From Colwellia sp. (GTDB taxonomy: Bacteria > Pseudomonadota > Gammaproteobacteria > Enterobacterales > Alteromonadaceae): 64,000 nucleotides of DNA. How positions within the stretch are numbered: the stretch's first letter is position 1; each line of letters starts with the position of its first letter. The translations under genes and the position numbers were made by a program. The notes beneath the pieces were generated by a model. That model worked only from the letters and a program-made list of their open reading frames with translations. It searched no databases and had not been told where the DNA came from. This document shows positions 54,858-55,982 of this stretch, one piece after another. Location: NCBI GenBank assembly GCA_029938115.1, contig JAPYOP010000004.1, forward strand, positions 72,752-136,751. The letters are read 5' to 3'.

Positions 54858-55982
54858 TTAAAAATAAAAGTGGCTTTGTAAAAAGATGACGTCATAGTTT
54901 TGTTCTGGCATTTGGGGGATATCTTGCTTAACTCTAATGCCTAAACGCAGTTGAATATTTGAGAATGGCGTATACTCTGTAATAAAAGAATATCGTGTTT
55001 GTTCATTTTCGTCGACGTCATTATCAGGGTCAAAATACTCGGCGGTTAATTTAAAGTTCCAACCTTTTCGCCACTGATAATTCATTTCAATTAAACCTAC
55101 CTGTTGACTAATGTCTTGTTTAGTAAAAGTATTAGCTGCTTCTAAATTGATATAGTCTACTTCGGCTAACAATCCAATATTCCGCCATTGAGTCCCTGCA
55201 AACACATTAAACATTTTCGTTTGGTGGTCGCCGTCATTTAGCATTGCACTAGCACCTAATCTGAAATGTGGAAACAGATGTTCTATTCGAGTACCGTATA
55301 ACAAACTATCGTCGTCATTAGTCGCTTGACTCGTGCCGTTAGCCAAGTAAAGGTTTACGGTGGTTTTTCCAAAATTAACGCCATACTCAATGCCATTGTC
55401 GCTATTATCAAAGTTCATACCGGTGACTTGACGAATGAAAGCACTGTCATCTTCAATGCGTAATCCATATGGAATAAATAATTTTCCTGCTTTTAAATAG
55501 CTTGCTTGTAATGATGAATTTTCAGCAAAGTTATACATAACAAAAGCTTCACGGTTAATGGCACTTCCGGGGGCTACTTGTTCATCAACATAAAAAGATA
55601 AGCCTGTTTCAGGGATGCTAAAATGTAAGTAAATCTGCGCACTTTCCGTTGAAAAGCCTTTGCTAGTGTCGTTAGTTTCGGCTTCACTTTTTTGATAACT
55701 CGCGTTAAAACGAGCATCAGTGCCAATGGTTAAGAATTGTGTTAATTTAGCTATTGTTTTACTATCAAATTGATAAGTTTTGCGGGGTAATACTGTTTGT
55801 CCGTAATTTCTACCAAAATCATTTCGCAAACCACCGCCAATAGGGTTCACGTGGCATGCGCTGCATGCAAGGTTATTTTTAATGGCTAAATACGGCTCGG
55901 CTTGTGCTGCAATGCTAAAAGCAAATGCGATGACTGACGATAATATTATTACTGCGGTTATTCGTTTATAAAGAAAATTCAT
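54858..55982 (-). CDS. Outer-membrane beta-barrel protein with N-terminal CxxCH motif (candidate fused monoheme cytochrome-porin)
   Basis: Signal peptide [28 protein letters not shown]. CSACH at mature residues 12-16 (nt 55851-55865). Then about 340 aa with an alternating amphipathic pattern, ending in the aromatic ...LQSHFYF. Start trimmed to ATG 55982, which overlaps the upstream stop by 17 nt. Confidence 0.6.
   Translation of the reverse strand: [374 protein letters not shown]

Follow-up and report, generated by a model that had tools for sequence, protein, structure and literature searches.

A 64,000-nucleotide stretch of a Colwellia sp. genome (assembly GCA_029938115.1, contig JAPYOP010000004.1, positions 72,752 to 136,751 of the forward strand; hereafter the window) carries two overlapping genes, W2 and W3, encoding a predicted lipoprotein monohaem cytochrome c and a predicted fused monohaem cytochrome-porin, respectively. 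We propose, with a probability of about 60%, that the two products form a two-component outer-membrane electron conduit. As a pair, they look like an as yet undescribed and very widespread cousin of Cyc2, whose gene is the main marker for mapping neutrophilic iron oxidation in genomes and metagenomes. For W3, the claim is solid at the level of architecture and inferential at the level of function.

W3 occupies positions 54858..55982 on the minus strand (as do all features below unless marked otherwise), from an ATG at 55982 to a stop codon at 54858-54860, and encodes 374 residues. A signal peptide can be read at residues 1-28 (55899..55982), with predicted cleavage between AQA and E, and the alignment of homologues turns conserved exactly at A28-E29-P30. 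A Cyc2-like pre-haem segment follows at residues 28-39 (55866..55901), delimited from the family logo of 221 sequences and an ungapped alignment with Cyc2, and leads into the haem c attachment motif C40-S-A-C43-H44 (CSACH; 55851..55865). The original prediction had put this motif at the same nucleotides, 12 residues past the predicted cleavage site, and these coordinates proved exact. The remainder of the chain is a 16-strand beta-barrel with a conserved polar and charged lumen (residues 84-374, 54861..55733, from the DSSP strands of the model described below), ending in ...FLQSHFYF. Scans of W3 against Pfam and NCBIfam returned only sub-threshold noise (DUF7840, choice_anch_V) and no curated family, and a sequence search of the PDB gave no relevant match, hence no sequence-related solved structure. 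The exact W3 protein had no match in the assembly index, and a W2 protein identical to that of the window is present in NCBI.

The position of the CxxCH motif in W3 is more than chance, judging from its conservation across the family. All 36 aligned homologues, the most distant of them at 43% identity, have C40, C43 and H44, so that the two cysteines and the histidine on whose conservation among orthologues the original prediction had staked its reading are retained. Among the 223 full-length members of the wider set, CxxCH is lacking at this place in just one, whose N-terminus is mis-called; 221 have exactly one such motif and one member has two. Members are about 365-390 residues long and share the signature A-E-P-Y-L-A-[VI]-[KR]-[NTE]-[GN]-L-K-C-x-x-C-H-V-N-P-x-G-G-G-x-R-[NT]-x-[FY]-G-x-x-Y, which begins exactly at the predicted signal-peptidase site. 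Some variation was seen at the edge of the family. The distant member P0360 carries two CxxCH motifs, IPQFPARHGHECTACH then IPPWYARKCSLNCAVCHVNPTGGG; another distant member, P0388, has a His-rich insert (DDGGDHHHHDGGG) ahead of its CxxCH; and the N-terminus of this sub-branch, [IL]PQFP[AV]R, is reminiscent of the IPAFAR of Cyc2.

The family is also large. A word-indexed search returned 779 homologues, and an exhaustive profile search gave 2,235 representatives at 50% identity (963 with E ≤1e-10); the GTDB species genomes contain at least 490 loci. The hosts belong to several orders, are mostly aerobic heterotrophs and include Colwellia, Thalassotalea, Pseudoalteromonas, Cellvibrio, Microbulbifer, Steroidobacteraceae, Nevskiales and Woeseiaceae from sea water, sediments and soils. 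The original prediction had called this architecture notable in a heterotrophic marine gammaproteobacterium; a large unnamed family in at least 490 species, most of them aerobic heterotrophs, leaves no such rarity. Database labels of the relatives read "hypothetical", "porin" or "cytochrome c domain-containing", and a search of plasmids for the family gave no match. A literature search combining Cyc2 with the host genera returned nothing relevant, and no paper describing the W3 family was found; two papers on the distribution of Cyc2 do not mention Alteromonadales or Cellvibrio.

The barrel fold was examined with an AlphaFold2 model of W3 built on the 36-sequence alignment (pLDDT 76, pTM 0.74). 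The model has 16 beta-strands over residues 84-373 and three short helices over residues 30-83, in agreement with the barrel that had been predicted from the sequence. A Foldseek search of the PDB with this model returned 16-strand porins as top matches, with VhChiP the best (E=2e-15), followed by PorB, Omp32, OmpT/U, OmpF, OprP (2o4v, TMq 0.63) and OprO (4rjx, 0.62). OprP and OprO, or close variants, are the structural templates that were used for Cyc2 (PMC8406198, 10.1101/2021.03.22.436458), and one W3 family member gives a weak Porin_O_P match. The likeness to the porins VhChiP, PorB, Omp32, OmpF and OprP/OprO is thus one of fold (E 1e-15 to 1e-10, TM 0.55-0.72), whereas identity to W3 is only 9-15% and those porins have neither an N-terminal haem module nor an obligatory cytochrome partner. 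The combination of signal peptide, single N-terminal CxxCH and porin put forward by the original prediction therefore stands, with 16 strands in the model and 16-strand porins as its structural neighbours. Strand parity and hydropathy place 23 of the 25 W3 strand positions conserved at ≥90% on the lumen-facing side; by this sequence measure, the barrel interior is under strong constraint. Family-wide, H44 and H371 are the only conserved histidines, H371 being ≥95% conserved over 219 sequences. The same parity and hydropathy place H371 (codon 54870..54872) towards the periplasmic end of the last strand, pointing into the lumen, and we propose it as a candidate distal ligand of the W3 haem.

The partner gene W2 (55966..56901; likely start ATG 56862, giving 298 residues) encodes a lipobox (LFSGC), a FoxE/PSCyt1-type haem domain and an Ig-like C-terminal domain. 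Its haem attachment motif CSVCH (56668..56682) was read from the sequence and is invariant in the alignment. The stop codon of W2 (55966-55968) lies 17 nt inside the W3 open reading frame, in line with the coupling to a second CxxCH protein that the original prediction had described. To count co-located genes, the window's neighbour proteins were compared by tblastn with 80 genomic loci. W2 lies directly upstream of the porin in 77 of these 80 genomes, the three exceptions being contig ends or rearrangements. Between the W2 stop and the codon at which the mature porin begins, the median distance is 64 nt, with values below 90 nt in 57 of 66 loci; as this is no longer than a signal peptide, the two reading frames overlap or abut almost everywhere. 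Invariant residues of W2 (298-residue numbering) are the lipobox Cys, which is followed by a conserved AGSGEGLDxxGRP tether, C61-x-x-C64-H65 and M123-P124; the invariant C-x-x-C-H and M-P indicate His/Met ligation. W2 has no Asp at position +2 and, by the Lol rule of E. coli, should be sorted to the outer membrane. At many distant loci (L040, L046, L053, L057, L065, L073 and L076; Steroidobacteraceae, Nevskiales and similar), a gene for an extra, larger W2-like cytochrome of about 490-840 residues stands beside the pair, which suggests lineage-specific extensions of the electron path.

An invariant FoxE-like partner of W3 is a new finding. The only PDB relative of W2 is FoxE (5mab, E=6e-4 over 90 residues), and PSCyt1 (PF07635) matches 19 of 38 W2 members, with a best E of 3e-5 and the W2 of the window below the gathering score. 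The features of the FoxE/PSCyt1 class were all found in W2, namely CxxCH, a distal Met in an R-M-P-L-G context and a C-terminal W-I-x-x-G-A helix. FoxE (5mab/5mvo), a periplasmic dihaem Fe(II) oxidoreductase of Rhodobacter ferrooxidans SW2, shares with W2 the pattern CxxCHG ... PG ... RMPLG ... I..WI..GA and His/Met ligation. In contrast to FoxE, W2 has one CxxCH and one haem domain rather than the dihaem architecture, is a lipoprotein, has an Ig-like C-terminal domain and stands in a haem-porin context instead of a foxEYZ operon. The AlphaFold2 model of W2 (pLDDT 82) also has an Ig-like C-terminal half; Foldseek with the two-domain model returned only weak Ig-fold matches, all to that half. 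Some W2 relatives have a CopC-like domain at this end.

We then compared the W3 family with genuine Cyc2. Cyc2 has been defined by a signal peptide, one CXXCH, a 16-strand porin and a length of at least 365 residues, together with AXPXFAR[Q/K][T/Y] before the haem site, PXL four residues after CXXCH and either BLASTP matches at ≤1e-5 to a query from Clusters 1-3 or a match to a FeGenie Cyc2 HMM, the published pipeline demanding PXFAR[Q/K][T/Y] (PMC8406198). A protein search with the concatenated published mass spectrometry peptides of Cyc2 PV-1 recovered P0121 (Cyc2 PV-1 itself) and 119 Zetaproteobacterial Cluster-1 relatives. A tblastn search with P0121 added non-Cluster-1 homologues on plasmids of Ralstonia, Paraburkholderia, Methylocystis, Ideonella, Caballeronia and Polymorphobacter, all of which have A-[VL]-P-x-F-A-R-Q-T-G-x-x-C-x-x-C-H ... 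P-E-L-T-P-[FY]-G-R. The set used for BLASTP and hidden Markov model (HMM) comparisons comprised 126 sequences, 120 from Cluster 1 (Zetaproteobacteria) and six plasmid-borne ones of the Ralstonia type, and the Cyc2 HMM was our own. A small gene annotated as a c-type cytochrome follows the canonical Cyc2 homologue on four of five plasmids (L082-L086; Methylocystis, Ideonella, Caballeronia and Polymorphobacter), the Caballeronia plasmid also having a HiPIP gene upstream; on the Paraburkholderia plasmid, the nearby c-type cytochrome gene lies upstream. The hosts of these plasmids are not known to oxidise iron.

W3 shares with Cyc2 a signal peptide and a predicted 16-strand barrel fused to a cytochrome domain, has a single N-terminal CXXCH (residues 40-44) and, at 374 residues, a sufficient length. 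Its first ~35 mature residues align with Cyc2, the distance between cleavage site and first Cys being equal. Counted from this Cys, the ungapped alignment of the two families matches at -12 (A), -10 (P), -8 (L/F), -7 (A), -5 (K/R/Q), -4 (N/T) and -3 (G), and the families match again at FGxx[FY], past an insertion of 2-3 residues. Profile comparison with hhalign gave E=7e-5 over 92 columns against Cyc2 Cluster 1 with signal peptides included, E=1e-4 over 35 columns for mature chains (219 W3-family and 114 Cyc2 sequences), and E=7e-6 with 85% probability and 39% identity over 33 columns against a broader Cyc2 profile; over the mature N-terminus, probabilities ranged from 57 to 85% and identities from 31 to 39% across 33-36 residues. 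Because both families had been selected for CxxCH, we also ran a shuffle control in which the two cysteines and the histidine were pinned and the other Cyc2 columns shuffled; 3 of 300 shuffles reached the observed score (z=3.8, p ~0.01). The rare member P0360 mixes both signatures, with IPPWYARK and CAVCHVNPTGGG. These profile alignments suggest that the cytochrome module of W3 is probably a remote homologue of that of Cyc2.

W3 and Cyc2 (A. ferrooxidans Cyc2, Mariprofundus ferrooxydans Cyc2 PV-1 and Leptospirillum Cyt572; PMC8406198) have in common a CxxCH about 12 residues into the mature chain, short helices, an OprO/OprP-like barrel, the pre-haem pattern A-x-P-x-[F/L]-A-x-[Q/K/R]-[T/N]-G at the same spacing with FGxx[F/Y] after the haem, and absence from Pfam, as noted for Cyc2 PV-1. 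W3 adjoins a gene for a small periplasmic c-type cytochrome, and canonical cyc2, too, has a small c-type cytochrome gene as its companion. However, the partner of W3 is an upstream FoxE/PSCyt1-type lipoprotein with an overlapping reading frame, whereas the canonical cyc2 partner gene lies downstream. The W3 family also has its own signature CH-V-N-P-x-G-G-G-x-R in place of the FAR arginine and PxL, is shorter than Cyc2, which is mostly ≥400 residues, and occurs in aerobic heterotrophs. Its barrel is highly conserved, with a charged lumen and the ending Q-x-H-F-Y-F, in contrast to the poorly conserved Cyc2 porin, and the barrels of the two families do not align with hhalign.

The pair sits in a cluster of seven genes. 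Upstream, W1 (56933..59008; a 691-residue reading frame, probable start near 58933) encodes a lipoprotein of the SCO0930 family with 10 PF03640 (Lipoprotein_15) repeats (Pfam E=2e-101, NCBIfam NF040526) and five C-x(2-12)-C...W-P-[PA] motifs; no PDB relative was found for it, and the literature on PF03640/COG4315 held no functional information. Directly after W3 come W4 (54159..54788), a SigK-like extracytoplasmic function (ECF) sigma factor with Sigma70_r2 and r4_2 domains (NF007228 SigK, E=5e-36), and W5 (53335..54207), an RskA-type anti-sigma factor (PF10099 RskA_C, E=3e-16), which bears out the ECF switch that had been noted next door. W6 (52020..53378) encodes a second predicted outer-membrane barrel of 452 residues, with no CxxCH and a weak Alginate_exp match, and W7 (51299..52009, plus strand) a secreted or periplasmic leucine-rich-repeat (LRR) protein with a signal peptide and LRR_4 and LRR_8 domains, an unusual component for such a cluster. 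Co-location with the pair was found in 36 (W1), 48 (W4), 33 (W5), 34 (W6) and 33 (W7, rearranged Cellvibrio loci included) of the 80 genomes, always in Alteromonadales or Cellvibrionales, even when rearranged; in rearranged Cellvibrio-type loci, W6 and W7 remain linked with W4 and W5. Only the W2-W3 pair persists, in variable surroundings, in Steroidobacteraceae, Nevskiales, Granulosicoccus and others. Scans for sigma-70 promoters and terminators gave sites no more frequent than in shuffles. In the closest Colwellia relatives, a caa3-type oxidase operon (a COX2-cytochrome c fusion, then COX1) lies downstream (L087 19616-21116 and L088 18618-20118), and this operon and a dCache/HAMP chemoreceptor gene stand about 5-8 kb downstream of the cluster; the same side in the window holds the truncated rimO described below, an AraC regulator and two-component/EAL genes.

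Two rimO copies bracket exactly these seven genes: a full rimO at 59405..60859 and, at the lower border, a second, 5'-truncated copy at 49529..50728, 87% identical to the first in nucleotides, with similarity running ~130 nt beyond the stop codon. Such an identity, extending past the stop, speaks for a recombination event, old or foreign, and not for a recent duplication; a recent in-situ duplication of rimO was rejected since the copies differ by 13%. Between the full rimO and the cluster, positions 59103-59294 (plus strand) encode a 63-residue HU/IHF-type fragment (PF00216, E=2e-13), apparently truncated or frameshifted and possibly the scar of a rearrangement. No rimO lies within 8 kb of the cluster in any of the 80 other genomes, and in the closest relative (94% identity; Colwellia metagenome-assembled genome GCA_013215385.1) the cluster stands 5.6 kb from a single rimO. 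The original prediction had placed W3 on an acquired block. The bracketing copies make a rearrangement at rimO real, but a compositionally foreign island was rejected, as GC content is not deviant, and the cluster is conserved through Alteromonadales and Cellvibrionales and lies near rimO in the closest relative as well; the notion of an acquired island is weakly supported and not established.

How such a conduit would work can be outlined as follows. W2 and W3 would be exported by the Sec system, receive their haem in the periplasm from the Ccm system, and the W3 barrel would be inserted by BAM through its C-terminal ...HFYF signal. The first ~55 mature residues of W3 would then hold one covalent haem c (C40, C43 and proximal His44), in a segment that may sit in or at the periplasmic mouth of the barrel, with a lumen lined by conserved acidic, basic and polar residues that include His371 as candidate sixth haem ligand. 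A small redox-active solute could enter the pore and swap an electron with the porin haem, and the electron would pass to or from W2, presumably in contact with W3 and held at the inner leaflet of the outer membrane by its lipid anchor, and on to or from soluble periplasmic carriers and the respiratory chain. Judged from the Cyc2 and FoxE analogues, this solute would most likely be Fe2+/Fe3+. In Alteromonadales and Cellvibrionales, the cluster would be under SigK/RskA-type ECF control, and this type of ECF pair suggests that it is probably induced by an envelope signal. The logic resembles that of MtrAB, MtoAB and PioAB, in which side-by-side genes also encode an outer-membrane barrel and a periplasm-facing c-type cytochrome. 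Those systems, however, wrap a 26-strand barrel around a separate decahaem protein, whereas W3 has 16 strands and its own haem motif and W2 is monohaem; no sequence relationship to W2 or W3 was detected, and neither the 26 strands nor the decahaem protein is found here.

Several observations weigh against this proposal or against its link to iron. The haem region of the W3 model has a pLDDT of only 42-57, which bears on both the placement of the plug and the ligation by His371; low confidence around the haem motif is expected of a model that lacks the cofactor. The homology signal with Cyc2 is modest and limited to ~35 residues, and the similarity of W2 to FoxE may reflect just a shared, PSCyt1-like cytochrome subclass. 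No Fur box was found in the whole window, allowing up to 3 mismatches, and iron-uptake or oxidase genes are not consistently linked to the pair in distant lineages. To our knowledge, Fe(II) oxidation has not been reported for the aerobic heterotrophs that host the family. Departures from the Cyc2 definition belong to the same side of the balance. In PxFAR[Q/K][T/Y], the A, P, A and K of W3 match at identical spacing, W3 having L instead of F, I instead of R and N instead of T/Y; family-wide, position -6 is V/I/Y/F, and 220 of 221 members lack the Arg of FAR. Where Cyc2 has PXL, W3 reads CH-V-N-P-I-G-G-G, with Pro at +3 followed by x-G and an invariant GGG. The best BLASTP match of W3 among the 126 Cyc2 sequences scored 29.6 bits, short of the 1e-5 threshold (the best pair between the families reached 44.7 bits, signal peptides included), and HMM cross-searches gave at most 17 bits.

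These departures decide most of what can be said about a first alternative, that W3 is a bona fide Cyc2 Fe(II) oxidase that gains energy by oxidising dissolved Fe2+ on the surface of the cell, in the manner of Zetaproteobacteria and Acidithiobacillus. The domain order, single haem motif, 16 strands and length agree with it, as do the motif similarity at identical spacing to the first Cys, the adjacent cytochrome reminiscent of cyc2-cyc1 loci and the caa3-type oxidase operon some 5 kb off in the closest relative. Yet the motif carries Arg at -6 in a single member of 221 and NPxGGG where PxL should stand at +4, neither BLASTP at 1e-5 nor a Cyc2-profile HMM detects the family, the barrels are not alignable and differ in their degree of conservation, the partner is not a downstream Cyc1-type cytochrome and the hosts are heterotrophs, so that we regard this alternative as quite unlikely. 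The original prediction, which had assigned the architecture to the Cyc2 family, thus holds for the architecture and fails on membership as defined in PMC8406198, whether by motifs, BLASTP or HMM; the profile comparison adds evidence for a probable remote N-terminal link (hhalign E=7e-6), which that prediction could not draw from the sequence by itself. On the sequence comparisons, the description that suits the W3 family best is that of a separate sister family to Cyc2, not of canonical Cyc2. An ordinary diffusion porin, in which CxxCH forms a disulfide, binds a metal or is incidental, with no haem and no electron transfer, would account for the match of the fold to the general porins VhChiP, PorB and OmpF, and the haem of W3 is itself a prediction. 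But the two cysteines and the histidine are invariant in 222 of 223 members across several orders, a structural disulfide would not need the His, the flanking motif resembles the Cyc2 haem region and a c-type cytochrome is an obligatory neighbour, which makes this explanation very improbable.

A further possibility shares the two components with the proposed conduit and differs in what passes through it. W2 and W3 could form an outward-directed or non-iron route that hands respiratory electrons to an acceptor outside the cell or inside the pore, such as Fe(III) chelates for iron acquisition, Mn, Cu(II) or reactive oxygen species, or that oxidises another small reductant, and could serve ECF-controlled envelope stress or metal homeostasis instead of energy gain. 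The SigK/RskA-type control in about half of the genomes, the co-conserved accessories (the PF03640 lipoprotein with five Cys pairs, the LRR protein and the second barrel), the CopC-like domain of some W2 relatives, the reported reversibility of the A. ferrooxidans Cyc2 chain and the aerobic heterotrophic hosts all fit this idea. However, the sequences give no sign of direction or substrate, the window has no Fur box, and many lineages have the core pair but not the ECF module. Moreover, since W3 is Cyc2-like and W2 FoxE-like, the nearest characterised analogues of both invariant components act in Fe(II) oxidation; overall, we find this possibility rather unlikely. The conduit proposal in its more specific form holds that W2-W3 represents an outer-membrane Fe(II) oxidase or conduit of a class not recognised before, with an ancient kinship to Cyc2, which hundreds of aerobic heterotrophic Gammaproteobacteria carry and marker tools overlook; this form we advance only tentatively. 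The family would indeed be invisible to marker-gene tools, because the motif filter, the BLAST criterion and the HMMs would all miss it.

Taken together, these results suggest that electron transfer across the outer membrane may be within reach of many ordinary bacteria of the sea and the soil, a capacity that iron-cycling surveys of the FeGenie type may under-count. The pair offers a two-gene system for testing electron exchange between heterotrophs and dissolved iron or another small redox solute, and the linked ECF sigma/anti-sigma genes offer a handle for finding the inducing signal. The conserved W3 lumen and the candidate ligand His371 also provide a structural target for how a single haem may work in a 16-strand pore, a question that Cyc2 poses too. 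If the iron-specific form of the conduit is true, cryptic, ECF-inducible iron redox capacity would be far commoner in heterotrophs than Cyc2 surveys indicate.

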